In this document: in pieces, positions 11,345 to 27,346 of the stretch
How the letters are laid out: each line of letters starts with the position of its first letter
How positions within the stretch are numbered: the first letter of the stretch is position 1
Source: Candidatus Moraniibacteriota bacterium
GTDB taxonomy: Bacteria > Patescibacteriota > Minisyncoccia > Moranbacterales > GWC2-37-73
NCBI GenBank assembly: GCA_035390125.1
Contig: DAOOTD010000001.1
Location: forward strand, 31,619-95,618
Reading direction: 5' to 3'
Length of the DNA: 64,000 nt
Position numbers and translations under genes: made by a program
The notes under the pieces: model-generated
The model's database searches: none
What the model saw: the letters and a program-made list of their open reading frames with translations, nothing else
Told to the model about the DNA's origin: nothing

Positions 11345-11366
11345 GTCATTGCCTTAATAAAAATAT

Positions 11367-11567
11367 ATGACAAAAGCTAAATTTATCGCATTCGAAAAAG
11401 TCAGACGCAGTAGGCTAACAAATATGTATGACATCAATGCTGTCCGGCTGATCGCTATCAAATACGGTCAGATGCTTACCAATAAAGATTGCTTCGACTG
11501 CATGCTCAACTACGACAAATACCGCCGAAAATATTTAGAAGATAAATCAATATGGAAAAAACAATAA
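11367..11567 (+). CDS. Small hypothetical protein upstream of, and overlapping, int1 (excisionase/regulator candidate)
   Basis: 66-aa basic ORF overlapping the int1 start. No motif recognised. Confidence 0.3.
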   Translation: MTKAKFIAFEKVRRSRLTNMYDINAVRLIAIKYGQMLTNKDCFDCMLNYDKYRRKYLEDKSIWKKQ

Positions 11568-12436: not shown

Positions 12437-12444
12437 GCCTGTGA

Positions 12445-12465
12445 TTCTAGGGAGATTTTGTGGTA
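12445..12465. repeat. Junction/att-like core copy B (ttctagggagattttgtggta)
   Basis: 20/21 nt identical to 8163-8183. It lies immediately downstream of the int1 stop. Confidence 0.55.
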
Positions 12466-12477
12466 GAATTGGATTAT

Positions 12478-13428
12478 ATGAAAGTAAATATACTCCAAAA
12501 ATACTACGATAGCTTCATAGCCCAAAAAGATAACCAATCCTTTTTAATTGGGTTGGCCGATTATATCAGATTCATTTTAGCTGATGAAAAATCTAAGGAA
12601 ATTATTTCAGAAATACAAAAATCCAAGGAGGCACTTTTGGCCGAAAAAGATAGTCTGGAGAAAACAGTTGACAGTGAAACAAGGATTGCCAAAAAAGAAT
12701 ACCTTGACATGACGGGATCATCAGAGACGGTTGATGATATTTCTCTCGCGGATAAAGTGCTCTATTCTCAGTCTCATCCGAAGTTGGCCGAGCTGGATAA
12801 AAAAATAAAAGAGGAAACGGAAACTTCAATTTGGGGAGCTTGGGATAAAATAAGTTCGGTTTATTCCGGATATTCAAATTCAACATTGAGCGACAATCTG
12901 GATATAGCGCGCTACGTGCCTTACGCGAATAGAATTCATAATTATCTCTTGGGAAAACTGGATGATAAAGCAGAATCAACTGGCAGTTATTCGGTTATGG
13001 ATTTTAAGAAAAGCAATAATGATTCAATTTTGGAAAAGGATGGACTGAAAGACATCAGTTCCATCATAATCGTCACAAGAAACCCGGGACTTAGGGACGA
13101 GTCATTGTGGTTGGTTTTTAATAACGACTTTCGCAATAAAGTTAAATTTTTAGCCAAGAAAAAACAAGCAGGCGATAATTATATCAAGAAGCTACATGAG
13201 ATTGTCGATAAAAGTAAATATGGCGCGAAGGTTCTACATGATCATCAGATAGCAACCACAATAAACTCAAAGATATTTAAAAGAGTGGGAGTCGCGGGGG
13301 TGTATAGGCAAAAGACAATTGTGGAAAAAGATGGAGATAATTTTGGGATAAATCAGGAAATTGATATTAATATTGTGCCAAAAGGAATGCTTAAGGAAGA
13401 GCAGGCTAAGTTTTTTCCAAAGGGATGA
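12478..13428 (+). CDS. Hypothetical protein
   Basis: Listed ORF 12460-13428 (GTG in the core copy); an ATG at 12478 is more likely the start. No motif recognised. Confidence 0.45.
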   Translation: MKVNILQKYYDSFIAQKDNQSFLIGLADYIRFILADEKSKEIISEIQKSKEALLAEKDSLEKTVDSETRIAKKEYLDMTGSSETVDDISLADKVLYSQSHPKLAELDKKIKEETETSIWGAWDKISSVYSGYSNSTLSDNLDIARYVPYANRIHNYLLGKLDDKAESTGSYSVMDFKKSNNDSILEKDGLKDISSIIIVTRNPGLRDESLWLVFNNDFRNKVKFLAKKKQAGDNYIKKLHEIVDKSKYGAKVLHDHQIATTINSKIFKRVGVAGVYRQKTIVEKDGDNFGINQEIDINIVPKGMLKEEQAKFFPKG

Positions 13429-13575
13429 TTTCCGAGTAGTTTCTGTCTGAAAATAATATTTACGAGAAAAGAATCGCTTATCAGAGCGGTTTTTTTGCGT
13501 TTGATTTACGAGCAAAGGTTATTTATTTGGTGCATGAAGTTGAGATAATAAGAGCATAAGATATAAAACCAATAA

Positions 13576-14541
13576 ATGATTTCCATATTTTCCGACAACT
13601 TAAACCTTTCTGACAGTTTTGACCGCTTCTTTGAGGATATTGAGGCGAATTGTTCGCTGTCCAAAAGTTCAATCGAAAAATACAAGGAAATCCGTCCCCG
13701 GATAATTAAATTCTTTGGCAATATAAGCATAAAGAAGATTGATGCTCGGATGATTACTAAATATAAGCAGTATTTGAATCAATCAAGTCAGAAGAAAGAC
13801 AACCTCAGTCCCAGTTATAAAAATCAGCACCTGACATTACTCCGTTTGCTTCTGAAATTTGTGAAGGAAAAAGAAGGCGCAAAGGTGATGGATTATGCTC
13901 AGATTTCCAAGTTCCGAGTTCCAATTAAGGAGGTTGAGACATTGAATGAGTCGGAGTTGTCCACGGTGCTTGACTACCCAAATGAGAAAACAATTACTGG
14001 GTGTCGACTGAAGGCATATTTTGAAGTTTCATTTTCAACCGGCTGTCGCGTGAAAGAAGTTTTGGGCTTGAAGATATCGGATATTAATTTCAAAGACAGG
14101 ATTGCTCACATTCGGACGAAAAATAACAAACCTCACACCATTTTGTTTTCCGATTCCTCAATTGAAGCGATTAACAAATATTTGGCTATGAGGAAAGATA
14201 ATCATCCAAATTTATTCGTGACTGCAACTCCCAATCCCAAACCATGGCAAACCAACGATGTTGAAAGGAGTCTTCGAATGATCGGACGAAAACTGAAGCT
14301 TAGTAAGAATCTCAGACCACATATTTTACGCAAATCAGCCGCGACGCACATGTATAAAAACAACGTTTCGCTCGGAGTCGTGCAAAATTTTTTAAACCAT
14401 TCCTCCGCCAGAACCACGCTGACTTACTATTTAGGCAATTCGAATTTTGAAGAGCTAAGAAGGAATCACGACAGAGTTATGAATAATCTGGATTTTAGAG
14501 ATAAGACAGATTCATCTGGAGAGGGGGTGAGAACTACATGA
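13576..14541 (+). CDS. Tyrosine recombinase / integrase (int2), related to int1
   Basis: HILRKSAATHMYKNNVSLGVVQNFLNHSSARTTLTYY (HxxR...Y). The catalytic region is similar to that of int1. Confidence 0.85.
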   Translation: MISIFSDNLNLSDSFDRFFEDIEANCSLSKSSIEKYKEIRPRIIKFFGNISIKKIDARMITKYKQYLNQSSQKKDNLSPSYKNQHLTLLRLLLKFVKEKEGAKVMDYAQISKFRVPIKEVETLNESELSTVLDYPNEKTITGCRLKAYFEVSFSTGCRVKEVLGLKISDINFKDRIAHIRTKNNKPHTILFSDSSIEAINKYLAMRKDNHPNLFVTATPNPKPWQTNDVERSLRMIGRKLKLSKNLRPHILRKSAATHMYKNNVSLGVVQNFLNHSSARTTLTYYLGNSNFEELRRNHDRVMNNLDFRDKTDSSGEGVRTT

Positions 14542-14957
14542 AGTTGCAGAAAAAGGAAACTATGGGGATGCCTTTCGCCAAGAAAGGAACAGATGTCAAA
14601 GAAGGAGACATAATCACCATAGGTAGTGAAGGGAAGATTGTGGAAACTCAATTCGGCTCACAGAACATTTTTGAAATCAAAACTGCTAATGGCGTGGAAT
14701 TGGTTTTGGGTATCAACCAGACCAGCATCAATGCCTTGGTGGATGCTTTCGGAGAAGAAACTGCGAACTGGGTAGGCAAGAAGGTAAAAGTTCATTCATT
14801 TAAGCAAAATGTGGCTGGTAAATTTATACAGGTTTACTATGTCGCACCAGAAGGCTATGAAATGGGTGAAAACGGATTTGAGAAATCCGGATCAGTAGGA
14901 GTGGTTAACGCTCATATGAGTGAAGAATGCGCGGTTGTGGAAGACAACGCTTTCTAA
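14538..14957 (+). CDS. Hypothetical protein
   Basis: 139-aa ORF overlapping the int2 stop. No motif. Confidence 0.4.
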   Translation: MKLQKKETMGMPFAKKGTDVKEGDIITIGSEGKIVETQFGSQNIFEIKTANGVELVLGINQTSINALVDAFGEETANWVGKKVKVHSFKQNVAGKFIQVYYVAPEGYEMGENGFEKSGSVGVVNAHMSEECAVVEDNAF

Positions 14958-15036
14958 GGTTAGTTTGTGTGCTGGGCAGAATTTTTCTGCTTAGCCATAA
15001 GTTAATTTTAACAGATAAAAAATTTTAAGAAAGGGA

Positions 15037-15064
15037 TTGACAAGGCTATGAGAACTGATAAAAT
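15037..15064 (+). promoter_or_regulatory. Strong sigma70-type promoter TTGACA-16-TAAAAT
   Basis: Hexamers at 15037-15042 and 15059-15064. Confidence 0.5.
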
Positions 15065-15069
15065 ACAAT

Positions 15070-15220
15070 TAGAAAATAAAATATTTGGACTTACTTCGTC
15101 TGGAGTTTCGCTGTATTCAGATGGTCGAAGTAGGAAGTCTTTCTCAATATTAGGTCTGAGAAAAAGTCCGCAAACAATTATCACTTTTAGTGGTAGGCGT
15201 TTGCGGGCTTTTTGTTTATT
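15070..15220 (+). ncRNA. Candidate small RNA or regulatory leader (~150 nt) between the promoter and a terminator, upstream of the primase gene
   Basis: Long interrupted hairpin gacttacttcg...cgaagtaggaagtc (15089-15140). Terminator-like stem ccgcaaac/gtttgcgg (15168-15206) followed by gctttttgtttatt. The only ORF here (15048-15233) is low-complexity and begins inside the -10 element. Confidence 0.3.
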
Positions 15221-15312
15221 AAATTTTAACTAACTTGTTCGGTGGCTCCTGCTGGCCTTGGATGCGAACTATTCCGTCCATCCGAGGTCAACTGGAGTCA
15301 CGACGGAATTAT

Positions 15313-17856
15313 ATGAACTACGGTAATATCTCGCCGCGAGAGTATCTGCGAGAAAAAAACATTGAATTCAGGGAAGTAAACGGTGAACTGGTAATGAAGT
15401 GCATTTTTGGAGATTGCGATAGCGACAGTACGGAAAACGAAGCGCATCTTTGGATGAATGCCGAGACTGGGCAATACCAATGCAAGAAATGCCAGGCAGA
15501 GGGAAACCTCCTAACGCTTGCTAAACATCTTGGCGATAGGATAGTTGATGTTGTTAAGCAGCCGAAAATTCAAAAACTTAAAAAGGTGTTTGATCCAAGC
15601 CTAGTGGATTTTTGCCATGACAGACTGCCGGATGAGATTAGAAAATATTTGAATAACCGCGGTTTGAATAACGAACTGATTAACGAATATAAACTGGGTT
15701 GGTGGGTTTCTCGAAATGGAAACAGAATAAGTATTCCGGTTAAAAACGAATCAGGCGAATACATATATTTGAAACTGAGGAAAGACCCGAGTGATTCGAG
15801 TAAGGGAAATAAGTATATTTTCTATCCCAATGCCAGTTCCAGCTTATTTGGCATAGAACTACTGCGAAAAGAAAAAGGTAGGGTATTTATTTGCGAAGGT
15901 GAGTTGGATTGCATCCTGCTTCAGTCGAAAGGATTGATAGCAGTAACTTCCACGGCCGGTGCGGGAACTTTCAAAAAGGAATGGATAAAGGAATTTGAGC
16001 ATCTTAAGGAAGCATATATAGTTTTTGACAACGATGACGAGGGGAGAGCCGGATCGGAAATGGTGGCTAAAAAACTATCGGCCATTGACGGACTGGAGGT
16101 TAAAATAATTCGTCTTCCTGAAGCAGTGGGTGAAAAAGGAGATATTACCGATTATTTTGTAAAGCTGAACGGCACGAAAAAAGAGTTAACCAGATTGGCT
16201 GAACCGTTTGAAATGGAAACCGAAGAAGCTGAGGATGACGACACGGATGAAAGAAAAAACCAAAGCGACCTTATTGTTGAATTAGTGAAGGAAAACAAGA
16301 GGATTGTTCTTTTCCATGATGACGCTAGAAGTCCGTATATCAGTCTGCCGGTTTCCGGACATAACGAGATATTAAATCTGAAGGATCAGAATTTCAAATA
16401 TTGGCTGGGAAAGAAGTTTTGGGATAAATACAAAAAGGCTCCCAATTCCGATTCCATTAACAATGCCCTTAATATTATTAAAGGTGAGGCAATATTTAAC
16501 GGATCGGAATATAAGCTGGAATGTCGGGTGGCGATTAGAGACGATGCTATTTGGTATGATCTTTCCAATAAAAAATGGCAGGCAGTAAAGATTACCAAAG
16601 ACGGATGGGAAATTGTGGATAATTCTCCGATAATGTTTCGCCGATATTCCCACCAGAAAGCGCATCCCTTGCCAGTAAGGGGAGTGGCCATTGAATTATT
16701 ATTGCCATTCATAAACATTAGGGATAATGGACAACAGCTTTTGCTTCTGGTTTATATAATCAGCTGTTTCATTCCCGGCTTTCCACATCCGGTTATCAAT
16801 ATTTATGGTGCCCAAGGTTCAGCTAAGAGCACCCTATTCAAATTGATTAAAAAGTTAGTCGATCCATCGCTTATCGAGGTATCTAGTTTTCCCCAAGGCG
16901 AAGACAGTTTTGTTTTAAAGCTGTCTCATCATTGGTGTATTCTCTTCGATAATGTTTCCTTTTTGTCCGATCAGACTTCAGATTTGCTTTGCAAGGCAGT
17001 GACAGGCGCGGCCTTTTCCAAAAGAGAACTTTACAGCGATGACAACGATGTCATACATACTTTCCGGAGGTGCTTGGGAATAAATGGAATAAATTTGGTT
17101 ACATCCAAGCCGGATTTATTGGAAAGGAGTTTGTTGTTTGAACTGGACAGAATTCCGCCAGAAGACCGAAAATTGGAGCAGGATATTATTGATAATTTTG
17201 AGCAAATGTTGCCGGAACTATTAGGAAGCATTTTTGACATAGTCTCTGAAACAATGAAAGTTAAACCAGGGATGAGTGCTCAAAATTTGACCAGGATGGC
17301 TGATTTTGCCCATTGGGGTTCGGCTATTGCCAGAGCTTTAGGGCACAAGGAGACAGAATTTCTGGAAGCTTACCGCAATAATATAGCCAACCAGAATAAC
17401 GAAGTGCTTTTGGAGAATTTCGAAGCTATAACCATCCTCACTTTTATGGAATACAGGGATGAATGGGAAGGAACCGCGTCGGAACTACTGGAAGAATTGA
17501 AAATTATAGCTGGAAAGCTGCAAATTGACATCAAAGAAAAAGGATTTCCTAAAAGTGCCAATAATCTTAGTAAAAGAATCAACCGTCTGAAAACTAACTT
17601 GGAAGAAGCTGGGATAAAAGTTTACCGCAAGGAAGAAAACAGGCAAAGGATAATACGCTTCCAACGAGTTGGCAAATCAGTCGTTTCTATCGATGCATCG
17701 TTGCAAGATGGCGTTTTAAATAACGATAGCAACGGTAAAAACGATGAAAACGCAAGCTTGTCGGAGCAAAAAAGCTTGCTTGAAAAGGAAGGAGGTGTAG
17801 TTGAAGCGGAAAAATACAGCGATGAATATGACATTGCTGAGGAAATAGATTTTTAG
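15313..17856 (+). CDS. Bifunctional DNA primase (CHC2 zinc finger + Toprim) / P-loop helicase-like (D5/P4-alpha-like) protein
   Basis: CHC2 Zn finger (CIFGDCDSDSTENEAHLW...YQCKKC). Toprim (VFICEGELDCILL...IVFDNDDEGRAGS). C-terminal Walker A (IYGAQGSAKST). Start taken at MNYGN, 15313, inside the listed ORF. Confidence 0.8.
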   Translation: MNYGNISPREYLREKNIEFREVNGELVMKCIFGDCDSDSTENEAHLWMNAETGQYQCKKCQAEGNLLTLAKHLGDRIVDVVKQPKIQKLKKVFDPSLVDFCHDRLPDEIRKYLNNRGLNNELINEYKLGWWVSRNGNRISIPVKNESGEYIYLKLRKDPSDSSKGNKYIFYPNASSSLFGIELLRKEKGRVFICEGELDCILLQSKGLIAVTSTAGAGTFKKEWIKEFEHLKEAYIVFDNDDEGRAGSEMVAKKLSAIDGLEVKIIRLPEAVGEKGDITDYFVKLNGTKKELTRLAEPFEMETEEAEDDDTDERKNQSDLIVELVKENKRIVLFHDDARSPYISLPVSGHNEILNLKDQNFKYWLGKKFWDKYKKAPNSDSINNALNIIKGEAIFNGSEYKLECRVAIRDDAIWYDLSNKKWQAVKITKDGWEIVDNSPIMFRRYSHQKAHPLPVRGVAIELLLPFINIRDNGQQLLLLVYIISCFIPGFPHPVINIYGAQGSAKSTLFKLIKKLVDPSLIEVSSFPQGEDSFVLKLSHHWCILFDNVSFLSDQTSDLLCKAVTGAAFSKRELYSDDNDVIHTFRRCLGINGINLVTSKPDLLERSLLFELDRIPPEDRKLEQDIIDNFEQMLPELLGSIFDIVSETMKVKPGMSAQNLTRMADFAHWGSAIARALGHKETEFLEAYRNNIANQNNEVLLENFEAITILTFMEYRDEWEGTASELLEELKIIAGKLQIDIKEKGFPKSANNLSKRINRLKTNLEEAGIKVYRKEENRQRIIRFQRVGKSVVSIDASLQDGVLNNDSNGKNDENASLSEQKSLLEKEGGVVEAEKYSDEYDIAEEIDF

Positions 17857-17944
17857 GTAGGAGTTAAACAATGTCTTGCAATGTCCAGCAGCTGGACAAA
17901 AAAGGCTTTAATAAGGGGAAAAGTAATCAATAATCATCAAAAAT

Positions 17945-18175
17945 ATGACCAACACTAAAAAGAAAATTGAAGAGCTGAATCAGGTTCTTTCCGATCACTC
18001 CGATATGAGGGGAAGTCGGCAAGTGTTCTATCTGTTTCCGCAATTCTATCAGGAAAAGTTATATAAGCTGGAAGTCCTGCTTTCTGAAAAATATGGCATC
18101 GCGGGAAAGTCCAAAATTATAGCTCTGGCAGTAAGCTATCTAATCAAGGAAATAGAAAAAGATGAAAAAGTATAA
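17945..18175 (+). CDS. Small hypothetical protein
   Basis: 76 aa. Overlaps the start of the downstream MTase gene. Confidence 0.3.
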   Translation: MTNTKKKIEELNQVLSDHSDMRGSRQVFYLFPQFYQEKLYKLEVLLSEKYGIAGKSKIIALAVSYLIKEIEKDEKV

Positions 18176-19226
18176 GTTTCAGTCGGCAAACTTTCCCTAT
18201 CTGGGAAGCAAAATTAGGCAAAGTTCCACCTTGGCGAGTTTTGTAAAGCCAGAAAAGCACAAAGTGCTAATCAGTCCGTTTGCCGGCGGTTGTTCTTTTG
18301 AGCTATTCGCTAAACATAGGCTGGGATTGAAAATAATCTCTAATGATTGGTCTCTGGTTTCATATGTTGCCCAGAAAGCATTATTGGAAAATAACACCGC
18401 GAAAATATCGCTGAATGATATTTATTATCTCTTCAGAGAAAATACAAACGATGGTTTCGTCAGAAAAAATTACAACAAGTTTTTTACTGATGAAATTTGT
18501 GAATTTCTAGACAGAGCTACGGAGAATATTCGACAGCTTCCGGACAGCTACCGAAAATATCTACTTTCCCACTTAATAATCTATTATATTCTCCATACCC
18601 TGCCTTACGGCAAATTCGGATGCACCGCGGATATCAGGAATGTTAAGGCTGTGGGGATGGAATTGGCGGTGGCAGAAGCGGTGAAGACATCAGATTCGAG
18701 AGCCAATAAACTGCTGAAAAGTGTCCAACATCCGCTGATCATTCTCAAGAAATTGGTGAGGGGAATAAATGCCGGGGTGAAAAATAATAACAAGGTCAAT
18801 GTGGCATACAACGAAGATGTGCTTGAATTCCTGCCCAAGACAAGGGAATTTGAAAATGAGGCTGTAATGATGGCGGACGCGCCATATTTCGAATCGACGA
18901 GTTATTCAATGTATGATGCTTTTTCAGAAATTCTGCTGGGCAAGAAAATCCCTAAAAGCAATAGTGCGTTCAACAGCAAAGAGGTAGAAGAGTGGTTTGA
19001 TAAATTCTTTGAAGCCTGCCAGCACATTGATCTATGGCTCTTGACCTATGGAGCCAAGGTGGACGAGCCGGGCGCGCTTCATTCGGATAAGTTTCTGGAG
19101 ATGGTCAAAAAACACCGACCAAATGCGAAACTGCTGATGCTGGAAAATTTCAGCTGGAGCATTAACAATTTATCAGGCAAGAGTCCCAGGGAATGCGAAG
19201 AATTTATCGTAATCGCAAAAAAGTAA
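18162..19226 (+). CDS. DNA N6-adenine methyltransferase, Dam-like (D12 class), apparently orphan
   Basis: Motif I VLISPFAGGCSFE. Motif IV-like MMADAPYFES (DPPY-type). Confidence 0.65.
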   Translation: MKKYKFQSANFPYLGSKIRQSSTLASFVKPEKHKVLISPFAGGCSFELFAKHRLGLKIISNDWSLVSYVAQKALLENNTAKISLNDIYYLFRENTNDGFVRKNYNKFFTDEICEFLDRATENIRQLPDSYRKYLLSHLIIYYILHTLPYGKFGCTADIRNVKAVGMELAVAEAVKTSDSRANKLLKSVQHPLIILKKLVRGINAGVKNNNKVNVAYNEDVLEFLPKTREFENEAVMMADAPYFESTSYSMYDAFSEILLGKKIPKSNSAFNSKEVEEWFDKFFEACQHIDLWLLTYGAKVDEPGALHSDKFLEMVKKHRPNAKLLMLENFSWSINNLSGKSPRECEEFIVIAKK

Positions 19227-19246
19227 TCAATTAACCAAATGCCAAA

Positions 19247-19885
19247 ATGACAAACCAAAAAATCTATTCAGAAGTAAAACTAGTTCCCATTGGGGAAATT
19301 AAGCCCAGCCCTTTTGAAAATGCCAATGAGTTTTCCGAAGAACTTTACGAGGCACTGAAAACAGATATTGACGAATATGGATTAGTCGGACAAGCCTTGG
19401 TGGTAAATTCCAAGGACAATACGCTGATTGACGGACACCACCGGCTCAAGGTGATGCAGGAGCTTGGATACACGGAAGTGCCAGTGGTATTTTACGAACC
19501 CAAGGATGGGATTGAACACAAAATTCTTTCCATCGCTTGGAACAGGAAACGCGGCACATTCAACGAACAGATACTACACAACACTATCAAAAGCATCCAC
19601 GATTCAGGAGTATATGGTCTGGAAGAATTGGCTGTGAGATTGGGCTTCAACTATTCAGAAATTCAAGAAAAATTGGAAGCGATAAAAATTGACGAGAATT
19701 TGATTAAAAAACTGGAAAGTGATGCCAAAGAACAAGAGGAAGCATTGCCAGTCTTAATGACATTTTCACTGAGTAAAAAGGACGCTGAACTGGTGGAAGA
19801 AGCATTGGAATGGGCTAAACAAAAGACCAGAGGAGAAGCGTTAGCGAAGGCGTGTGCGATGTATCTTGGCTTCGCCAAGGAATAG
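19247..19885 (+). CDS. ParB-like nuclease domain protein
   Basis: VPIGEIKPSPFE...LIDGHHRLKVMQELGYTEVPVV (ParB/Srx fold with DGHHR). Confidence 0.75.
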   Translation: MTNQKIYSEVKLVPIGEIKPSPFENANEFSEELYEALKTDIDEYGLVGQALVVNSKDNTLIDGHHRLKVMQELGYTEVPVVFYEPKDGIEHKILSIAWNRKRGTFNEQILHNTIKSIHDSGVYGLEELAVRLGFNYSEIQEKLEAIKIDENLIKKLESDAKEQEEALPVLMTFSLSKKDAELVEEALEWAKQKTRGEALAKACAMYLGFAKE

Positions 19886-19921
19886 GCAGGAGAAATATAA
19901 AGGGAAAAACAGTAAAAATTT

Positions 19922-20461
19922 ATGGCTGAAAGTAAAAAACCAGTATTGATGGGACCGAAAACAGAAGAGGGGATAAAAAAGGTTACCCAGAATCTCAAAA
20001 GAGAATCGGTCTTAAAGTCGGGCGGATTCGCCTTTTTGAAGTCCGGTTTAGCCCCAAACTGCCAAAGCTGTATCTTTAGCCACGAGTGCGAGCATTACGC
20101 GCCTGAAGCCAAATTTTGCCGAGCAGTGCTGGAATTTGAGAGCCAATTGGAGGACCAAATTATGGCTTTGCCCCAGATTCAGGAAATAGACCGCATTTTG
20201 GTCAAAAGGCTCGTGAGAAACTATGGCTTCCTATATATCACGGATAAGTGGTTAGCCAAAGCCTCTCCGTTCCTATTGGAAAACAAGCAGTTTGATTTTC
20301 AGCCAATCCTGAAAACCAGGACAGTTTATGAGCGCCTCATAATCCACTTCTGCAGTGCTTTAGGATTAACTCCGGAAGCTAGAAGCAGAATCGGACTGAA
20401 TGTGGCACAGACATATAGTTTGGCTAAAGAATTAAGCGAACTGGAATATGACGAAGATTAA
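19922..20461 (+). CDS. Putative terminase small subunit (assigned by position only)
   Basis: 179-aa ORF immediately upstream of, and overlapping, the large terminase gene. No diagnostic motif. Confidence 0.3.
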   Translation: MAESKKPVLMGPKTEEGIKKVTQNLKRESVLKSGGFAFLKSGLAPNCQSCIFSHECEHYAPEAKFCRAVLEFESQLEDQIMALPQIQEIDRILVKRLVRNYGFLYITDKWLAKASPFLLENKQFDFQPILKTRTVYERLIIHFCSALGLTPEARSRIGLNVAQTYSLAKELSELEYDED

Positions 20462-21986
20462 ACCCATCACCAGAGAAAAACTGATTGAATACAAAAAAGA
20501 CATTGTTGTCTTTCTTCAGGAACAATACATCCTAGAAGATGGTAAGCCGATTAAACTGGAGGAATTTCAAAAGAAAATCCTCAGAGATATTTTCCAGACC
20601 AAAAATACAAATGGTTTCAGGAAATACAACCTGGTTTTGATTGGCGTGCCAAAAAAGAATGGAAAATCCACGATGGCATCGGCAGTGGCTTTGTATTCCT
20701 TGTTTACTGAAATGAACGGCGAAGTTTACGGAGCGGCAGGCGACAAGGATCAGGCCAAAATTATTTTCCAGATGACCAAGCGAGCCATTGAAAGAAATCC
20801 CATTTTGCTTGATTCAGTGAGAATCTACAAAGATGAAATTGTGGTTCCCAGCACAAACAGTGTCTATCGCGTTCTCTCCGCTGACGCCCCAACTGCCCAT
20901 GGTTTGAATCCCTCCTGCGTGATTTTCGATGAACTTTGGAATCAACCCAATCGTGACCTGTATGACGCGCTAACGCAAAGTCCAGTCCGAAAAGAACCGC
21001 TGACTTTTGTGGTAACTTACGCCGGAACAGACCAGACCAGTTTGCTCTATGACATCTATCAGACAGGAATGCAAAAGCGAGACTCCAAAATGTATTTTTT
21101 CTGGAGTGAAAATAATTTGGCGAGCTGGGTGAATGAGGAATATCTGGAACAGCAACGGATGCGTCTGCCAGCTGGAGTGTATCAACGACTCCATGAGAAC
21201 AAGTGGGTGCAGGGTGAAAATGCGTTCATTCAAAAATCGGAAGTGGAAGCCTGTAAAGATTATGCTTTGAAGCCCCAGCTTAACGGCAGGGAAAATATAA
21301 AGTATTATCTGGCAGTGGATTTGGGATTAATCCGCGACAGAACAGTTTTGACGATTTGCCACAAAGATAAAAATGATAACCTTATTTATCTCGACTTCAT
21401 CAAAACTTATCAAGGCACCAAAAAGAACCCGGTGCTCATCAGCGACATTGAGTCGGATATCCTTTGGGCGAATCAAAATTTCAACATCAGAAAAGCCATT
21501 TTGGATATCTGGCAGATGAAAAACAGCGCCCAGAAATTAAAAAGGATGGGAGTGAGAATAGAAGAATTTACATTCACATCAAGCACTATTCAGAAATTAT
21601 CCCAGAACCTCTTCTACTTGTTTCATAATTCTCTCATCAGAATTTTCCCTTGCAAATTGCTGGAAGATGAACTACTGAGTCTGAACGCCGAAGAAAAATC
21701 GTATGGTTGGAGATTGGATCATAAGTCGGGAGGATTTTCTGACCATGTCATAAGTCTTGGGATGAGCAGTATGTTCGCCATCCAAGATGAACGGGCGAGT
21801 GCTGGAGTGCTCATTTCCGAAAGTCCAACTTTTGAAGAGTTCGAAGCCCAGCTCAAAAAAGAGGAACAGTTACGAGGCAAGGTCATTGAAGCAGGAGTAA
21901 AGAAGCCAGAACATATTAAACCTAAACAATCCTTTCCCACACTCAAAGAGTTGGAAGAGTTTCGGGCAAGGAAATACATTCTATGA
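20448..21986 (+). CDS. Phage terminase large subunit (Terminase_1-like)
   Basis: Walker A-like LIGVPKKNGKSTMAS. DELW. The C-terminal nuclease-like region contains acidic residues (AVDLGLIRDRT). Confidence 0.75.
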   Translation: MTKIKPITREKLIEYKKDIVVFLQEQYILEDGKPIKLEEFQKKILRDIFQTKNTNGFRKYNLVLIGVPKKNGKSTMASAVALYSLFTEMNGEVYGAAGDKDQAKIIFQMTKRAIERNPILLDSVRIYKDEIVVPSTNSVYRVLSADAPTAHGLNPSCVIFDELWNQPNRDLYDALTQSPVRKEPLTFVVTYAGTDQTSLLYDIYQTGMQKRDSKMYFFWSENNLASWVNEEYLEQQRMRLPAGVYQRLHENKWVQGENAFIQKSEVEACKDYALKPQLNGRENIKYYLAVDLGLIRDRTVLTICHKDKNDNLIYLDFIKTYQGTKKNPVLISDIESDILWANQNFNIRKAILDIWQMKNSAQKLKRMGVRIEEFTFTSSTIQKLSQNLFYLFHNSLIRIFPCKLLEDELLSLNAEEKSYGWRLDHKSGGFSDHVISLGMSSMFAIQDERASAGVLISESPTFEEFEAQLKKEEQLRGKVIEAGVKKPEHIKPKQSFPTLKELEEFRARKYIL

Positions 21987-22128
21987 AGACCAAAACCCAG
22001 TCGCTGTTATCGTCCCTGTTTATATCGGCATTATTCGCAACATTCATTTGGACAATGTATGAGCGCTATTGCCAAACAGTCAGATAATAGCTGTTGTCAG
22101 TCCCTTTTAATTTGTAATTTTAACCAAA

Positions 22129-22623
22129 ATGATAATCATTCAATTTTTACGAGAAGTGAGCGCGGGAAGATTCTTCCATAATTTGAAAGATGTGAAGAAA
22201 ATTCATCCAGTTTTTAAGCGGTATATTTCAGAAGTTGGTGAGGATAAGTATCTTATTAAAGACGATGAGAAAATAGTGGCAGAGTGTCGTTTTGATATTT
22301 CTGATTTGGAAATGCTTTGCGAAGCGCGATTCTATAATCTAAAAGGCGACCAAGAGTCGCTAAAAAAACTGATTGTTTTTACTCTTCCCAGATATATTGA
22401 TGAACGAGCTTTCATTGCCGACAGCAACGGTCTGGGATATTACTTCGATGCCACCAATCATTTCCTGATTGACGGTGATAAGTATTATTTAATCGGCAAT
22501 GATGATGAAAAGCTAATTCCCATTGAGCATTACCGCCTGCCGATAGAAGTGAAAAGGGAAGATTGGCAGGAAAAGCTGAAGAATCTCTTGGAAAAAGCCA
22601 AAAGCCAAGGAGTGGATAAGTAG
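22129..22623 (+). CDS. Hypothetical protein
   Basis: 164-aa ORF. No motif. Confidence 0.4.
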   Translation: MIIIQFLREVSAGRFFHNLKDVKKIHPVFKRYISEVGEDKYLIKDDEKIVAECRFDISDLEMLCEARFYNLKGDQESLKKLIVFTLPRYIDERAFIADSNGLGYYFDATNHFLIDGDKYYLIGNDDEKLIPIEHYRLPIEVKREDWQEKLKNLLEKAKSQGVDK

Positions 22624-22681
22624 GCCTTGATAGTATTCCCCAAAGAGCTATGGTGTGTCCATAAGTTAAGAGTAAAACAAA

Positions 22682-23533
22682 ATGGATCATATCAAAGACT
22701 ATTTGGATTACCTGAAACTGGAGCGGTGCTTAAGCGAGCACACGGTCAGGGTCTACAAAAACAATCTGCATGAGTTTCGTGATTATTTAGGAAAGAGCGG
22801 TTCAATTAGGGCGACAAAGAGGAAAGACATCCGAGCCTTCCTCTTTTCGTTAGCCAATCAGCCGATTACCAAAAGATTGAAACAAACGACCCTGCGAAAT
22901 TTCTTCAGATTCTTGGAAGACGAAAATATCATCAGAGATAATCCGATGAAAAATCTGCCGATGCCCAAAGTAATCAGCCGTGAGCCAAGTTATCTTTCAG
23001 AATTAGAAGTCAGGAAATTGATTGGCGCGGTGGAAAAGGATGAGTCCAAGTTTCAACCAAGAAACGAGGTGGCAGTTAGGATTTTAGCCGAGACAGGCTT
23101 TCGACTCAGTGAATTGACCAATATAAGCCTCAACGACATCAATTTGGAAAACAAAACCATCCGTATTAGGCGGAAAGGCAATGTGGAACAGGTTGTGCCG
23201 ATTAACAAAAGACTAGCCAAATTATTGAAAGTATTTATGAAGGGCAAAAAACCAAATGAACCGCTGATCAAAAGCAGTCTGGGGAAAAGAATGACTGCGA
23301 GGAGGGTTTCTTTGATGCTTCAGAAGTATTTGGAAAAAGCCGGAGTAGCAAGAAAAGGAATATCAGTCCATAGCCTTCGTCACAGCTATTGTGTGAGGCT
23401 TTTGGAAAAAGGGGCGAGTCTCCGGGCGACTCAGATTTTGCTCGGACATAAATCTATTGCTACGACGGAAAGATATATGCATCTCACTAAAAATCAGCTG
23501 GCGAAGGAAGTGAAGCTGTCCCAGATAGATTGA
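22682..23533 (+). CDS. Tyrosine recombinase, XerC/XerD-like (int3)
   Basis: N-terminal DYLDYLKLERCLSEHTVRVYKNNL. C-terminal HSLRHSYCVRLLEKGASLRATQILLGHKSIATTERYMHL. Confidence 0.85.
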   Translation: MDHIKDYLDYLKLERCLSEHTVRVYKNNLHEFRDYLGKSGSIRATKRKDIRAFLFSLANQPITKRLKQTTLRNFFRFLEDENIIRDNPMKNLPMPKVISREPSYLSELEVRKLIGAVEKDESKFQPRNEVAVRILAETGFRLSELTNISLNDINLENKTIRIRRKGNVEQVVPINKRLAKLLKVFMKGKKPNEPLIKSSLGKRMTARRVSLMLQKYLEKAGVARKGISVHSLRHSYCVRLLEKGASLRATQILLGHKSIATTERYMHLTKNQLAKEVKLSQID

Positions 23534-23688
23534 CCGGAGTTCTTTGAAAACTAAAAAAAGAAAACCGATAAGTTAATGGATGGAGAGACAGGATGGACGG
23601 GTTGATTTTCGCCGATATAAATGTAATAATAAAATCAACAATTAAATGCCTAACCCTTGTGAGTAAAATCGCAAGGTATGGTATGAAA

Positions 23689-23735
23689 ACCGACTAAAGT
23701 GTATTAAGCTCTCCATCCAGAGCACTTTAGTCGGT
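23689..23735. repeat. Perfect 13-bp inverted repeat accgactaaagtg / cactttagtcggt with a 21-nt spacer
   Basis: Seen directly. A direct copy of aaaaccgactaaa recurs at ~23834. Confidence 0.5.
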
Positions 23736-23850
23736 CATGTCTCGAAAGGGATATGGGTGTCCGCAAGGACATCGCTGGTGGGGAGCTTTGTGTTTTTCTG
23801 CCAGCGAAAACTGGCAGTTTTTTAATTCATTAAAAAAACCGACTAAAAAA

Positions 23851-24795
23851 ATGGAAACACAAAACAAGAAGTGCCAATTTTGCGGAGAAGAAATTCTTGC
23901 AGAAGCTAAAAAATGCAAACACTGCGGAGAATGGCTGGAGACAGGACACGAGCCAGTTAAAAATTCCAAGAGTAAAGTAGTCGCCTTTTTATTGGCTTGG
24001 CTTTTGGGAGGACTGGGAGCGCACAAGTTTTATCTGGGAAAAACAGGACAAGGTTTTCTGTATTTGATATTTTGTTGGACGCTGATTCCATCGTTTGTCG
24101 CTTTCTTTGAAGGCATCGGATACATCGCCAGCAGTGATGAAAAATTTGCGAGCAAATATATCAATGGTTCAAATAATAATGAAAACAAGAAAGAAAGTTC
24201 TTTCAAGAAAATACTGCTGGCAGTGATAATCGCGGTGGGTGCTTTCTCAATACTGCTGGTTGTGATCGGCAATTCAATGGACGAGGTTGAAAAGAAAAAG
24301 AACGAGGCTGTTGTCCAGCCAGCGGAAACTCCAAAGCAGGAAACAGCACCGATTGAAACTGCCCAGGAAAAAATCGTGAGCTATCGGGAATTGAAGAGCT
24401 ATGAAAAATCTGGCAAGACCTGGAAAAGCATAGTCATCCCTCCCAAAACTTCTCAGGCAGATTTGATCGCATTGGCTAAAGATCTGCACAAAAAAGATGC
24501 CAAGAGCTATTTTCACATTTTTGACGATGATGCCAAATTTCAGGAATATATGGATTGGGATATAAATTATGGGAAGGTGAGGGATAAAGACGGAAAAGTA
24601 AAAACGATAGATCAATGTTCAGATATGAATTATTGCCAATCGCTTGTCCAACAACAAAAATATGCCTATCCCTTTCCAGAGGCATGGAGTGACAAACACG
24701 AGATTGCCATGATCAACGAGATGCTCGACATCAGCAGTGGAATGATGAAGTGGAAGCTGTCCAGTCCGCTGGGAATTGAAATAGTGGGGTTATAG
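23851..24795 (+). CDS. TM2 domain-containing membrane protein with N-terminal zinc ribbon
   Basis: [21 protein letters not shown] (CxxC...CxxC). TM2 signature [30 protein letters not shown]. Start chosen at METQNKK within the listed ORF 23737-24795. Confidence 0.65.
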
Positions 24796-24801
24796 GCTAA
24801 G

Positions 24802-24830
24802 AAAACCGGGGCGAAATGCCTCGGTTTTGT
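24802..24830 (+). terminator. Rho-independent terminator (aaaaccggggc-gaaat-gcctcggtttt)
   Basis: Interrupted GC hairpin followed by a T-run. Confidence 0.55.
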
Positions 24831-24964
24831 TATGCGGTGGCATCATTTACCCAACTTCAGATAAAAGTCGCACAAATCGCAGAATTTGGCGAAATTTAGG
24901 CTCTAAAACCCTTTACCAGAGGTCTGTTTTCTGCTAAAATTGAAGAATAAATGAGGTAAAAACG

Positions 24965-27334: not shown

Positions 27335-27346
27335 TCTTCGAATTCA

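Follow-up and report, generated by a model that had tools for sequence, protein, structure and literature searches.

We found that the genes between positions 13,576 and 23,533 of the window (the whole analysed stretch of 64,000 nt from a Candidatus Moraniibacteriota bacterium) form the conserved core of mobile islands of phage origin. These islands belong to an apparently undescribed family in ultra-small bacteria, namely Moranbacteria and related CPR bacteria. With high confidence, this is a conserved, functional and mobile island of phage origin that carries no virion genes. Its location at the 16S rRNA end, the kept packaging enzyme, the absence of shell genes and the anti-phage cargo together make a new kind of phage satellite the most likely explanation. 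The specific proposal, namely a helper-dependent satellite that inserts itself at the 16S 3′ end and uses a terminase of its own to package its DNA together with its defence cargo, has in our judgement about an even chance of being right. A first-pass annotation of the same DNA had suggested a satellite-type element keeping replication and packaging functions, and this general idea fits the evidence. The island has a GC content of about 0.40, compared with about 0.33 for its flanks.

The outer limits of the island are given by the following features.

6673 to 8164, + strand: 16S rRNA gene (Rfam SSU_rRNA_bacteria, 1402.8 bits), at whose 3′ end the island is inserted
8153 to 8172, + strand: core copy 1 (attL-like), 20 nt, ATCACCTCCTTTCTAGGGAG
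8173 to 8418, + strand: 16S trailer-like sequence on the island side, with box AGGACTAATCGCAATA and a terminator hairpin
42424 to 42600, + strand: core copy 2 (attR-like, 42424 to 42443) and displaced 16S trailer, with box AGGACTAGCCACAATA (42533 to 42548) and a terminator

Core copy 1 comprises the final 12 nt of the 16S rRNA, including the anti-Shine-Dalgarno, and 8 nt downstream, and the core has an imperfect palindrome (CTCCT..AGGGAG). It occurs exactly twice in the window, against 0.01 copies expected by chance, and each copy is followed by 16S-trailer-like sequence. The island-side trailer is homologous to the second trailer (42444 to 42600) and to the trailers of loci L008, L168, L181 and L182. 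Both trailers of the window retain a leader-complementary box; the first box (8345 to 8360) is complementary to the 16S leader at 6532 to 6547. The island starts at the 16S-end core and brings its own trailer, and the second core and the displaced trailer lie downstream.

The 16S 3′ end is also found immediately upstream of the island in L002, L007, L008 and L015, and the left edge is the same 20-mer with or without 16S upstream. For instance, a repeat of ~300 nt starting at this 20-mer flanks the 18.8-kb island of L008, with PheS next to it. The homology between L181 and L182 begins exactly at the core, and the DNA upstream is unrelated. In L168, L181 and L182 the core is preceded by non-16S DNA, and in L181 another core, a degenerate one, lies 86 nt upstream. 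Furthermore, the trailer type found at the attR side of the window is joined directly to a complete 16S 3′ end in six metagenome contigs; contigs with this trailer have other genes beyond it, and none gave a clean empty site. Among the loci and contigs examined, we saw neither an excised circle nor an attP junction nor an empty attB, which does not favour a satellite. In the literature searched, we found no report of the 16S rRNA 3′ end as an integration target.

The left part of the island and its replication region contain the following features.

8412 to 11241, + strand: variable cargo A (Pfam), with the next four genes
8412 to 9149, + strand: LexA-like S24 repressor
9488 to 9748, + strand: multi-ubiquitin-like ORF
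9723 to 10904, + strand: E1 protein with DUF6791 and ThiF domains
10888 to 11241, + strand: BubE/DUF6527
11317 to 11344, + strand: promoter-like element with embedded palindromic operator, TTGACT-TCGTGTGCCACGAAGC-TAATGT, a single copy in the window
11367 to 11567, + strand: orf66, a small protein, overlapping the start of int1
11552 to 12436, + strand: int1, Xer-like tyrosine recombinase (Phage_integrase 7e-30; Xer-type models below cutoff)
12460 to 13428, + strand: hyp322, helical in its N-terminal and alpha/beta in its C-terminal half (AlphaFold model)
13576 to 14541, + strand: int2, tyrosine recombinase (Phage_integrase, E = 1.3e-34)
14538 to 14957, + strand: hyp139, in the variable early/replication region, without significant matches
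15235 to 17856, + strand: DnaG/Toprim-type primase of the variable replication module

The cargo A set is also present in L008; L181 and L182, whose islands are otherwise nearly identical to this one, lack it. The promoter/operator is kept upstream of orf66-int1 in every examined locus; in L019 it is 100% identical over 52 nt, while TerL there is only 54% identical. L008 has a further copy before int3, and L001 has one after hyp148. The orf66 protein is 68-86% identical in L004, L007, L011, L015 and L019, its homologues have weak precomputed matches to DUF5049, and it may be an excision or directionality factor. Across loci, int1 is 58-84% identical. Where cargo A is absent, no other recombinase gene lies closer to the 16S core, and int1 is the strongest candidate for the integrase that acts on it. 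In a 49-kb viral contig from IMG/VR, the same core is found 225 nt from an integrase that is 36% identical to int1. The identity between int2 and int1 is 28%, and the three recombinases of the island share 20-28% with one another. No int2-like gene was found in L008 and L019, and most other family members have one. A simple satellite would not need as many as three recombinases.

In L168, a 139-aa gene occupies the position of hyp139 (positional comparison). The primase matches Toprim_2 (1e-7), phrog_47 'DNA primase' (2.6e-32), dnaG TIGR01391 (1.6e-13) and the PDB DnaG 2au3. It had been read as a CHC2-Toprim primase fused to a P-loop helicase-like domain. The Toprim/DnaG part of this reading stood, and the zf-CHC2 profile gave no match. 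The C-terminal half showed no profile or PDB sequence match, and what can be read from its sequence is a Walker-A-like GAQGSAKST and a Walker-B-like ILFDN. The primase is missing from L168 and most other loci, and a 33%-identical primase is present in the Parcubacteria locus L026. Most family members have no recognisable replication genes, which does not favour a satellite.

The packaging region follows directly.

17945 to 18175, + strand: hyp76, a small ORF overlapping the start of the methyltransferase (MTase) gene
18162 to 19226, + strand: orphan D12-class N6-adenine DNA methyltransferase (Pfam 4.3e-9)
19247 to 19885, + strand: ParB_N (ParB-like nuclease) protein (Pfam 2.4e-7; PHROG ParB/nuclease families to 2.5e-21)
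19922 to 20461, + strand: TerS, P27/HK97 type (sub-threshold matches: Terminase_4 4.6e-5, TIGR01558 P27-type 2.9e-6; phrog_83)
20448 to 21986, + strand: TerL, full length, with ATPase and nuclease domains (TerL_ATPase 1.1e-25; phrog_9 9e-64)
21983 to 22087, + strand: hydrophobic micro-ORF of 34 aa, its ATG overlapping the TerL stop (ATGA)
22129 to 22623, + strand: hyp164, without matches and with a conserved -10-like element upstream
22682 to 23533, + strand: int3, Xer-like (Phage_integrase 3.2e-37 and SAM_1 2e-13)

Every gene named in the first-pass annotation was recovered here in place, on the + strand and uninterrupted. ORFs of 65-83 aa stand at the position of hyp76 in L001, L002, L004, L007, L008 and L168. 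No restriction enzyme adjoins the methyltransferase, whose dN/dS is 0.06 against L168. The ParB_N protein (dN/dS 0.08) lies directly upstream of the terminase. In HK97-type packaging modules this position is held by HNH proteins, and the ParB_N protein may play an analogous role. The TerS call (dN/dS 0.06) is supported by its position, because the gene overlaps the start of TerL.

The TerL family profile matches the ATPase domain of HK97 TerL (6z6d, 6e-23) as well as nuclease-domain entries of thermophilic-phage TerL (5tge, 5m1f, E about 1e-7). TerL has at least 966 homologues. In the 29 that were compared, K69/K70/K73 (Walker A), D161/E162 (Walker B) and the acidic residues D291/D297/D353/D424 of the nuclease domain are invariant, and the dN/dS of TerL is 0.04. 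The packaging genes are intact and under strong purifying selection. A truncated or inactive terminase, which the earlier annotation had considered as a sign of a remnant, is at odds with a full-length TerL with invariant catalytic-type residues. In 13 of 15 loci, a comparable ORF of 21-49 aa starts with the TerL stop or shortly behind it, and about 11 of these ORFs are clearly hydrophobic. The hyp164 protein is restricted to the island family (a search of 1.84 billion proteins gave only 15 cluster representatives, of which 14 are 143-166 aa long); its dN/dS is 0.08, and its AlphaFold model (pLDDT 42) is unusable. Finally, int3 is the most XerC/D-like of the three recombinases (dN/dS 0.13). 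It follows TerL in all loci except L001 and stands where the conserved backbone gives way to variable cargo.

The same gene order was found in at least 15 distinct loci, with 11 GTDB species among them, mostly Moraniibacteriota. The order is orf66-int1-(hyp322)-(int2)-variable-hyp76-MTase-ParB-TerS-TerL-(hyp164)-int3-defence cargo, and it was seen in L001, L002, L004, L007, L008, L010, L011, L015-L019, L028, L168 and L181/L182. Because the same order recurs in so many genomes, the arrangement is far beyond chance. In addition, one large block of the window is shared with two other loci.

12278 to 29768, no strand assigned: exchanged block of 17.5 kb, shared with L181 and L182 at 100% identity (2 mismatches)

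The flanks of this block are only 85-88% identical to L181/L182. Identity over 17.5 kb within flanks that differ by 12-15% shows a very recent transfer and makes this block the unit that moved last. Three independent assemblies also break at 29878-29896. The limits of the block do not coincide with the core repeats, and its left edge lies inside int1; thus homologous recombination fits as well as site-specific movement. Meanwhile, L008 is 99-100% identical to the window in the 3′ part of the 16S and only 69% in TerL DNA, and L168 matches the window at 81%, only over 18156 to 26133. These comparisons indicate that modules and cargo are mosaic and that the 17.5-kb block moved very recently between diverged strains. 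The two integrases int2 and int3 had been proposed as the limits of the element. This view was not upheld: both genes are internal and int2 is not universal, the backbone starts further left at the promoter/operator and orf66-int1 (11317 to 12436), the exchanged block passes int3, and the outer repeat is the 16S 3′ end (8153 to 8172 and 42424 to 42443).

Alternatively, the 16S 3′ end could be a recombination hot spot at which independent modules, each with a tyrosine recombinase, have landed in tandem, so that the island is a composite of int1, of int2 with the replication and terminase genes, and of int3 with LOOT and the defence cargo. The three divergent recombinases, all on one strand and each upstream of a gene set, would agree with such accretion, as would the loci without int2 (L008, L019) or int3 (L001), the extra promoter/operator copies in L008 and L001, and the left edge of the exchanged block at int1 and not at the core. 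Cores behind non-16S DNA in L181, L182 and L168, as in tandem arrays, and the degenerate core of L181 point in the same direction, and L175 is an unrelated 5.6-kb mini-island between copies of the 16S 3′ end. However, the 20-nt core has no internal copy between the supposed modules, the module order is the same where TerL is only 52-54% identical, which is unexpected from independent insertions, and the 100%-identical block covers int2 and int3 and travels as one piece. The window and L168 are also collinear over TerL, hyp164, int3, LOOT, TM2 and PIF1. We regard accretion as unlikely.

The genes downstream of int3 are as follows.

23647 to 23773, + strand: LOOT small RNA (Rfam RF03000, 87.8 bits)
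23851 to 29591, + strand: cargo B (Pfam), inside the recently exchanged block and beginning with a TM2 protein
24965 to 26284, + strand: PIF1/RecD-like helicase (cargo B, Pfam)
26387 to 27334, + strand: SoFic (PADLOC 7e-37)
27347 to 28270, + strand: CBASS cyclase (PADLOC 6e-107)
28267 to 28857, + strand: Cap15 2TM effector of CBASS (PADLOC 2e-73)
28866 to 29591, + strand: SWIM protein (cargo B, Pfam)
29812 to 42390, + strand: genes that separate the exchanged block from the second core (Pfam)

LOOT has a promoter-like site (23602 to 23630) and a strong terminator (23798 to 23817), and it is also found downstream of int3 in L008, L010, L018 and L168 (77-100 bits). The cargo consists of anti-phage defence systems, and different ones, namely restriction-modification, OLD-family, SMODS and Schlafen, occupy the same position in other loci. 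The region from 29812 to 42390 encodes TetR, a CrtC/AttH-like lipocalin, a patatin, an ABC/FtsX/HlyD exporter, two GT4 glycosyltransferases, an MFS transporter, a P-type ATPase and a 203-aa unknown. Its GC content is about 0.38, compared with about 0.33 beyond 43 kb. It may be either older cargo or resident DNA, and its membership in the island is suggested by the outer repeat only.

Since the module always lies directly upstream of variable defence cargo on the same strand, it might have been domesticated, that is, the terminase block might be retained by the host or island for a purpose other than satellite spread. The terminase and the ParB nuclease could cut or mis-package invading DNA, or they could export the adjacent defence genes in a GTA-like or lateral-transduction-like manner with capsids encoded elsewhere. 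The strong selection on TerS, TerL, ParB and MTase, the lack of recognisable replication genes in most members and the fact that IMG/VR classes no member as viral are consistent with this. Nevertheless, the distribution is patchy (11 GTDB species representatives), the islands are mosaic and an identical 17.5-kb block was transferred recently, TerL similarity is uncoupled from 16S similarity, and the recombinases are intact. All of this argues for an actively mobile element and not for a fixed host function. Furthermore, no terminase-based defence system matched in PADLOC, in a scan that did not extend to the terminase genes. We consider domestication quite improbable.

The first-pass annotation had recognised no portal, capsid, tail or lysis gene, and this was borne out: no ORF matched such families in Pfam between 8.4 and 42.4 kb, and none of the ten ORFs scanned with PHROGs between 12.5 and 22.6 kb did so. 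The only hypothetical protein long enough for a capsid or portal is hyp322, which is found in some loci only. It has no Pfam, PHROG or NCBIfam match, and a search of PDB and BFVD with its AlphaFold model (pLDDT 74) gave nothing at E ≤ 1e-3; as modelled, the protein resembles neither a capsid nor a portal. In the nearest viral relatives of TerL (38-39% identity), TerL is followed by a Mu-type portal and then by a Mu-type protease. A portal never follows TerL in the island clade, and this clade (at least 50% identity) is absent from IMG/VR (best 41%) and GenBank phages (best 31%). The TerL of the island thus seems to be of phage ancestry with the head module lost.

A decaying prophage, in which a temperate phage lost its morphogenesis genes and the rest is drifting, had also been suggested. 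It would account for a TerL from a phage lineage with a portal after TerL and for the loss of all structural genes. However, at least 15 loci and 11 species show the same truncated architecture, dN/dS is 0.04-0.13 (MTase, ParB, TerS, TerL, hyp164, int3), the Walker A/B and acidic residues of TerL are invariant, all ORFs are intact, and an identical copy moved recently. The conservation and selection data effectively refute this explanation, to which we attach hardly any probability. A complete compact virus with its capsid and portal hidden among too-divergent ORFs is just as improbable: hyp322, hyp139, hyp76, hyp164, orf66 and the micro-ORF do lack detectable homology, and the hyp164 model is too poor for judgement, but hyp322 is missing from several members and its model has no viral or PDB match, the other unknown ORFs (34-164 aa) are too few for a tailed virion, and the Mu-type portals of related phages are easily recognised.

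For the satellite, we infer helper dependence, excision and packaging, and the following mechanism is proposed. A Xer-like recombinase, most probably int1 with orf66, would recombine the element core with the 16S 3′ end, restoring the rRNA 3′ end and providing a replacement trailer and terminator. A repressor on the palindromic operator, for which the LexA-like S24 protein is a candidate where present, would silence the element. A helper phage, by infecting the cell or by being induced, would derepress it, after which it would excise and replicate (with the primase in the window copy). Its own HK97/P27-type TerS-TerL, helped by the ParB-like nuclease, would recognise and cut the element DNA, which would be loaded into helper procapsids via the helper portal. 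In this way, the element and its downstream defence genes could spread and the packaging of the helper would be disturbed. Meanwhile, int3 may resolve multimers or swap cargo at the backbone/cargo border.

The island resembles PICIs/SaPIs in its specific att site with a tyrosine recombinase, repressor-controlled early region, primase-type replication module (window copy), a TerS packaging gene redirecting encapsidation, absence of virion and lysis genes, accessory cargo including defence, and mosaic, modular structure. However, it also encodes a full TerL, a ParB-like nuclease and an MTase, and in place of a single integrase it has three Xer-like recombinases. Its att site is the 16S rRNA 3′ end and its host a CPR bacterium; no Stl/AlpA-type regulator or capsid-remodelling genes were detected in it. 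PICIs are roughly 10-15 kb and the islands 17-34 kb. The 34 kb between the outer repeats exceed typical PICIs, a point that does not favour a satellite. Like the island, cf-PICIs have their own HK97-like TerS and TerL, so that packaging specificity belongs to the satellite in both. In contrast, cf-PICIs add a portal, major capsid protein, protease and head-tail connectors and steal only tails, and the island has none of these genes. To our knowledge, no known satellite family has TerL without capsid and portal, in agreement with the first-pass annotation, which had called this combination unusual. Thus, there is no precedent for a foreign TerL docking on a helper portal in such an arrangement.

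PICMIs and P4-like satellites are likewise small and integrative, depend on helper virions (as proposed for the island) and have few packaging genes; the TerS of PICMIs and the defence-gene hot spots of P4 are akin to traits of the island. Unlike them, the island has TerL, another att site and another host, and it has no Psu, Delta or Sid homologues, P4 alpha-type primase-helicase match, Fis or AlpA. Islands in tRNA/tmRNA genes and tycheposons share with it a tyrosine recombinase, the 3′ end of a conserved stable-RNA gene rebuilt with element sequence, a displaced 3′ fragment at the far end, same-site tandem arrays and variable cargo. The target of the island differs in being the 16S rRNA 3′ end including the anti-Shine-Dalgarno, and about 250 nt of rRNA trailer, with the leader-pairing box and terminator, are replaced as well.

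The source of the packaging module is HK97-type and Mu-head-type temperate phages, which share with the island a P27/HK97-type TerS, an accessory nuclease gene directly upstream of TerS, and a TerL with HK97-like ATPase and RuvC-like nuclease domains. Where TerL leads to the Mu-type portal and the protease in the nearest viral relatives, it leads in the island to the micro-ORF, hyp164 and a recombinase (int3).

The window is a chromosomal stretch of a CPR-type bacterium. Its left part contains tRNA-synthetase genes and the 16S rRNA gene, the housekeeping genes RsgA and LeuRS return past ~43 kb, and all long ORFs between the 16S rRNA gene and ~43 kb lie on the + strand. The GC content is ~0.40 at 8-29 kb, ~0.38 at 29-42 kb and ~0.33 outside. 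The features of the island are as follows.

6532-6547, 16S leader TATTGCGGTTAGTCCT
6673-8164, 16S rRNA gene
8153-8172, first copy of the 20-nt core ATCACCTCCTTTCTAGGGAG
8345-8360, box of the first (island-side) trailer
8412-11241, + strand, LexA-like and ubiquitin-like (Bub) operon
11317-11344, promoter-like sequence with embedded palindrome
11552-12436, + strand, tyrosine recombinase int1
13576-14541, + strand, tyrosine recombinase int2
18162-21986, + strand, packaging backbone (D12 MTase, ParB_N, TerS, TerL)
21983-22087, + strand, micro-ORF MKTKTQSLLSSLFISALFATFIWTMYERYCQTVR
22682-23533, + strand, Xer-like tyrosine recombinase int3
23602-23823, LOOT small RNA region
42424-42443, second copy of the core
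42533-42548, box of the second (attR-type) trailer

The first-pass annotation described 13576-23533 as a satellite-like or degraded-prophage block that is bracketed by two integrases and has no structural genes. We found that the genes it named are real and intact, and int2, the Toprim/DnaG-type primase, the orphan D12 MTase, ParB_N, TerL and int3 each gave clear profile matches. The small-terminase call stood in part: the gene overlaps the start of TerL, but its P27/Terminase_4 matches are sub-threshold only. The primase matched DnaG/Toprim-type models alone (Pfam, PHROGs and NCBIfam) and only over its N-terminal half, whereas the proposed helicase-like half consists of Walker-like motifs read from the sequence and matches nothing. 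The primase is present in the window copy and absent from most family members, and no origin was identified. In addition, the R...HxxR...Y residues can be read in all three recombinases.

The reported lack of portal, capsid, tail and lysis genes also held, as none of these families was found in any ORF at 8.4-42.4 kb with Pfam or in the ORFs at 12.5-22.6 kb with PHROGs. Only one hypothetical protein, hyp322 (322 aa), is long enough for a capsid or portal, and the other unknown proteins have at most 164 aa. The possibility that hyp322 is such a protein was not borne out, with no PDB or BFVD match at E ≤ 1e-3; its AlphaFold model (pLDDT 74) has a helical N-terminal half and an alpha/beta C-terminal half. 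Neither the C-terminal half of the primase nor the 139-aa hyp139 had a significant match among PDB sequences. Meanwhile, the model of hyp164 (164 aa, downstream of TerL) is unusable (pLDDT 42), and an exhaustive HMMER search gave 15 cluster representatives of its family, 14 of them at 143-166 aa and all confined to these islands.

The island begins where the 16S rRNA gene ends, and it follows this gene directly in the window and in four related loci (L002, L007, L008 and L015). The core ATCACCTCCTTTCTAGGGAG is made up of the final 12 nt of the 16S rRNA, with the anti-Shine-Dalgarno sequence, and 8 nt downstream. It occurs twice in the window (0.01 expected), and there are no other copies even when three mismatches are allowed. 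On the 3' side of each copy is a trailer; the two trailers are homologous, and each contains a box (AGGACTAATCGCAATA or AGGACTAGCCACAATA) and a terminator. The trailers have diverged, so self-BLAST of the window missed the core repeat, and it came to light when other loci were compared. The 16S leader is complementary to each of the two boxes; thus, either trailer could form the rRNA processing stem, and the pairing of leader and box probably does so. The island-side trailer pairs with the leader at least as well as the displaced one.

Other loci delimit the element at the same place. In L008, a repeat of ~300 nt (~130 nt identical) begins at the core 20-mer and flanks an 18.8-kb island, with PheS after it. 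L181 (from GCA_049287085.1) and L182 (from an independent assembly) carry near-identical islands; the DNA before the core is non-16S and differs between the two, and homology begins exactly at CACCTCCTTTCTAGGGAG. The left edge is therefore the core irrespective of the upstream DNA. L168, a related island, and L181 share a non-16S sequence upstream of the core. Non-16S DNA before the core is the expected pattern for site-specific recombination and tandem arrays. A clean empty site was not found, and a metagenome scan for a 16S end joined to the attR-type trailer gave six contigs in which the complete 16S 3' end is contiguous with the second trailer of the window. This contiguity fits displacement of the attR-type trailer by the insertion. 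Beyond the trailer, these contigs continue with a P-type ATPase paralogue or a mini-island as different cargo, and not with the right flank of the window. As alternative boundaries, att repeats around int2 and int3 were rejected, the search within 8-30 kb giving short chance-level matches only, and so was a tRNA attachment site, as the window has no tRNA genes.

The 16S 3' end is also used by other DNA. A 5.6-kb mini-island (L175, 513-6556) includes a truncated int1-like N-terminal fragment, an HlyD-like protein, a 1032-aa protein and a 150-aa ORF that is MarR-like by eye. On one side of it is a full 16S end, and on the other the last 143 nt of 16S are repeated, together with a trailer. From this mini-island, the 16S 3' end emerges as a hot spot for insertions in general, with displaced fragments of variable length. 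Furthermore, a 49-kb IMG/VR viral contig (L174, IMGVR_UViG_3300035208_000971) has, in the region 10001-11230, an integrase 36% identical to int1 and, 225 nt after it, the same core with no 16S upstream. This arrangement is like that of a phage attP matching the 16S 3' end, and the contig may be a candidate helper-type phage. The ten ORFs that neighbour its int1-like gene have no Pfam match.

The island has moved very recently, as its alignment to L181 and L182 shows. Over the 17.5 kb from 12278 to ~29768, identity to both is 100% (two mismatches), whereas it falls to ~85% in orf66 (66 aa) and int1 (11301-12277), to 88% in the trailer and to ~87% from the TetR gene onward. The left edge of the exchanged block lies inside the int1 gene. 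The LexA gene and Bub operon are missing from L181 and L182, and the trailer there abuts the promoter/operator. A TerL protein identical to that of the window is encoded on 18 contigs. Assemblies break at 29878-29896 in three independent cases, and at ~18.5 kb and 8032 in others. Moreover, L168 matches the window only from hyp76 (76 aa) and the MTase to PIF1; it has no primase, and its cargo differs on both sides. L008 is 99-100% identical in the 3' part of 16S, 69% in TerL DNA and 81% in the Bub operon. The identical block against diverged flanks, together with the mosaicism of L168 and L008, indicates that the element is modular and actively exchanged. The most recently moved unit (hyp322 to SWIM) contains the entire block of the first-pass annotation plus defence cargo.

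Exchange of this block may have occurred by either site-specific or homologous recombination. An imperfect repeat, TAAGCCTGT...GATTT(T/A)GTGG, lies near both edges of the identical block (12434-12463 and 29689-29724) and is statistically weak. Directly after the int1 stop, TTCTAGGGAGATTTTG matches, over 16 nt, the right half of the core and the start of the trailer (12445-12460). Both this partial core and the repeat could be inner att relics. The partial core was nevertheless set aside as an internal att relic: L011, another related locus, has a similar sequence (13/16 positions), which with the embedded extended -10-like TGGTAGAAT may make it a promoter.

The gene order is identical in all genomic contexts examined. 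On the left, it runs (orf66)-int1-(hyp322)-(int2), followed by a variable small-gene region. The middle consists of a 65-83-aa ORF, the D12 MTase, ParB_N, TerS and TerL. On the right are (a hypothetical protein of ~150-165 aa), the Xer-like recombinase, and then variable cargo. TerL has at least 966 homologues, many of them at 50-91% identity from Moranbacteria or Parcubacteria, and in a GTDB scan 11 species representatives carry the module with a TerL identity of ≥52%. Selection was estimated against L168 (81% DNA identity over 18156-26133; dS ~0.7-1.2 per gene), and dN/dS was 0.04 for TerL, 0.06 for TerS, 0.06 for the MTase, 0.08 for ParB, 0.08 for hyp164 and 0.13 for int3. The Walker A lysines, Walker B D161/E162 and four nuclease-domain aspartates are invariant across 29 TerL homologues.

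The packaging module appears to be of phage ancestry and to have lost its head module. The TerL family profile matched the ATPase domain of HK97 TerL (6z6d, 6e-23) and nuclease domains of thermophilic-phage terminases (~1e-7). The nearest viral TerL relatives are 38-39% identical (two IMG/VR contigs, L147 and L089, and a Dehalococcoidia prophage, L024), and in all three the gene directly after TerL encodes a Mu-type portal fused to Mu F, with a Mu-type protease next in order. At ≥50% TerL identity, the clade has no member in IMG/VR (best 41%) or among GenBank phages (best 31%). In a more distant Parcubacteria locus (L026, TerL 42%), the portal is likewise missing, and primase, TerL and several integrases occur together. 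A non-CPR relative was also seen in Desulfoferula mesophila (AP028679.1; L006, 9598-15348). It is a small island with a TerL 49% identical, in the order HTH protein, TerS-like protein, TerL, Phage_capsid, gp10-like protein and integrase, with no visible portal. Like the window family it is a reduced packaging island, but of another design.

In every locus, orf66-int1 is preceded by a promoter-like sequence, TTGACT-TCGTGTGCCACGAAGC-TAATGT, with an embedded palindrome. Even in L019, whose TerL is only 54% identical, conservation is 100% over 52 nt, and additional copies of the sequence precede other modules in L001 and L008. The exact palindrome is absent from the 49-kb viral contig L174 and present in some loci only. 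A LexA-like S24 protein is encoded by the island in the window, L008 and L002, and we infer that it binds the TTGACT-CTTCGTGTGCCACGAAG-TAATGT operator. In the window, the segment at 8412-11241, between island trailer and backbone, encodes this protein followed by a multi-ubiquitin-like ORF, a DUF6791-ThiF E1 and BubE/DUF6527; the ubiquitin-like operon set also occurs in L008 at 78-81% protein identity. In the window, the cargo genes include SoFic and a CBASS of type I, in which the cyclase is paired with a Cap15-like 2TM effector, and other loci carry restriction-modification systems, OLD-family proteins, SMODS and Schlafen-like genes.

The micro-ORF after TerL encodes a hydrophobic peptide of 34 aa, and its ATG overlaps the TerL stop (ATGA). 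An ORF of 21-49 aa is found at or after the TerL stop in 13/15 loci, clearly hydrophobic in ~11. Furthermore, the LOOT small RNA (RF03000) lies 3' of int3 in five island variants, and thus it is seemingly a component of this island family. In the window, its region has a promoter-like sequence (23602-23630) and a strong terminator (23798-23817); the other copies are in L008 (12675-12799), L010 (12573-12698), L018 (13414-13536) and L168 (11500-11625). The mechanical ORF of the TM2 protein from 23737 overlaps LOOT, so the probable start of the protein is 23851. In the Weinberg 2017 paper, the main text does not take up the LOOT motif; the island family gives this orphan RNA a genomic home.

The element is a satellite-like integrative island, and the mechanism that we propose builds on the observed anatomy, conservation and selection, core boundary, mosaicism and recent transfer. 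The most likely reading, to which we give about an even chance, is a helper-dependent satellite. Int1, probably with orf66, would integrate the element at the 16S 3' end and supply a replacement trailer. The repressor would keep the operator-controlled promoter off until helper phage infection or induction, and the element would excise and replicate upon derepression. Its own HK97/P27-type TerS-TerL and ParB-like nuclease would then cut the element DNA and load it into helper procapsids, and the same-strand downstream defence cargo would travel with it. In HK97-type modules, HNH proteins hold the position that the ParB-like nuclease takes here.

Four other readings were weighed against a helper-dependent satellite. 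A composite of independent integrative modules that gathered at a hot spot is unlikely; the uniform gene order across contexts speaks for one unit. Somewhat less probable still is a packaging module domesticated for interference or GTA-like export; selection on the terminase genes fits this reading, and the intact recombinases speak against it. A decaying prophage, the other possibility raised by the first-pass annotation, is excluded by the recurring order, the dN/dS values of 0.04-0.13, the invariant catalytic-type residues of TerL and the intact recombinase residues, and we accordingly consider a decaying remnant extremely improbable, even though head genes are lacking. A cryptic complete virus has the same very small probability, hyp322 being the one protein of sufficient length.

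Among known systems, PICIs are most similar to the element in working. A site-specific integrase with flanking att repeats is represented here by three tyrosine recombinases and the repeated 20-nt core, and a packaging-redirection gene is found without structural or lysis genes, although the TerS-like gene is assigned on weak matches. However, PICIs are ~10-15 kb, compared with 17.5 kb for the block and 34 kb between the outer repeats. No AlpA/Stl regulator was matched, and the genes are all on one strand instead of having a divergent regulator. TerL is atypical of the PICI family. The element thus departs from PICIs in size, regulator type, its more than single integrase and its TerL. With cf-PICIs it shares its own TerS and TerL, but the portal, major capsid protein, protease and head-tail connectors of cf-PICIs are all missing (Pfam, PHROGs and the hyp322 model). 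Because several PICI features fail and the cf-PICI capsid, portal and connector genes are missing, the element is a member of neither family. For P4-like satellites, Psu, Delta, Sid and the P4 alpha primase-helicase had no match (PHROG, Pfam and NCBIfam). The modules of a complete tailed prophage (portal, capsid, tail and lysis) are absent beside the terminase in the window and every related locus, and present in distant relatives.

Islands that target tRNA or tmRNA genes follow the same integration logic, which is moved here to the 16S rRNA 3' end: the element inserts at the 3' end of an RNA gene, restores this end with its own sequence and leaves the displaced 3' fragment distal, and the target is 16S rRNA, not tRNA. 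An integron has an IntI-type integrase with an extra domain, attI and an array of attC-flanked cassettes; this was rejected, as int3 scored 82.9 bits against a cutoff of 265 for the integron-integrase model and the cargo genes showed no repeated attC-like element. RIT elements are trios of neighbouring tyrosine recombinase genes that usually overlap and lie between inverted repeats; here the three genes are spread over 12 kb with others between them, and there are no terminal inverted repeats.

A large part of bacterial diversity belongs to the CPR bacteria. To our knowledge, almost nothing is known about their phages, satellites and immunity. The island family would be a concrete, widespread, sequence-defined mobile element carrying defence genes in these bacteria. 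In a literature search, we found no account of this island family, of integration at the 16S end or of CPR satellites, and a 2025 preprint stated that the existence of satellites for viruses of CPR bacteria was unknown. We tentatively propose, with somewhat under an even chance for the whole, that this is the first phage-satellite family of CPR/Patescibacteria. It would be a terminase-only family (TerS, TerL and an accessory nuclease, without capsid or portal) with the anti-Shine-Dalgarno end of 16S as attB, a functional replacement rRNA trailer, and LOOT and hyp164 as element-specific components. As part of this same tentative proposal, it would be the main vehicle of defence exchange among these reduced genomes, and the systems exchanged would be CBASS, SoFic, restriction-modification, OLD-family and Bub. 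An att site at the 16S rRNA 3' end would be new. Its use implies that the element must preserve rRNA maturation, and the host range could be broad because the sequence of the 16S 3' end is nearly universal. In addition, a satellite with TerL and without portal would test the docking of a foreign terminase on the helper portal.

Some minor observations concern other parts of the window. L181 and L182 lack a 285-nt segment (30400-30685) that the window carries between the TetR and CrtC/AttH-like genes and that codes for a 47-aa peptide spanning the membrane once. Genes for an MFS transporter and a P-type ATPase are flanked by a 100-nt direct repeat (37831-37930 and 41629-41726; 84% identity), and this stretch may be a separately mobile or duplicated cassette. 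Within the 16S rRNA gene, an insertion of ~865-900 nt at 8031|8032 is found in L008, L176, L177 and L180 (16S 3' regions 98-100% identical) and is absent from the window. It is a CPR-type 16S insertion or intron, and the L183 contig terminates exactly at this position.
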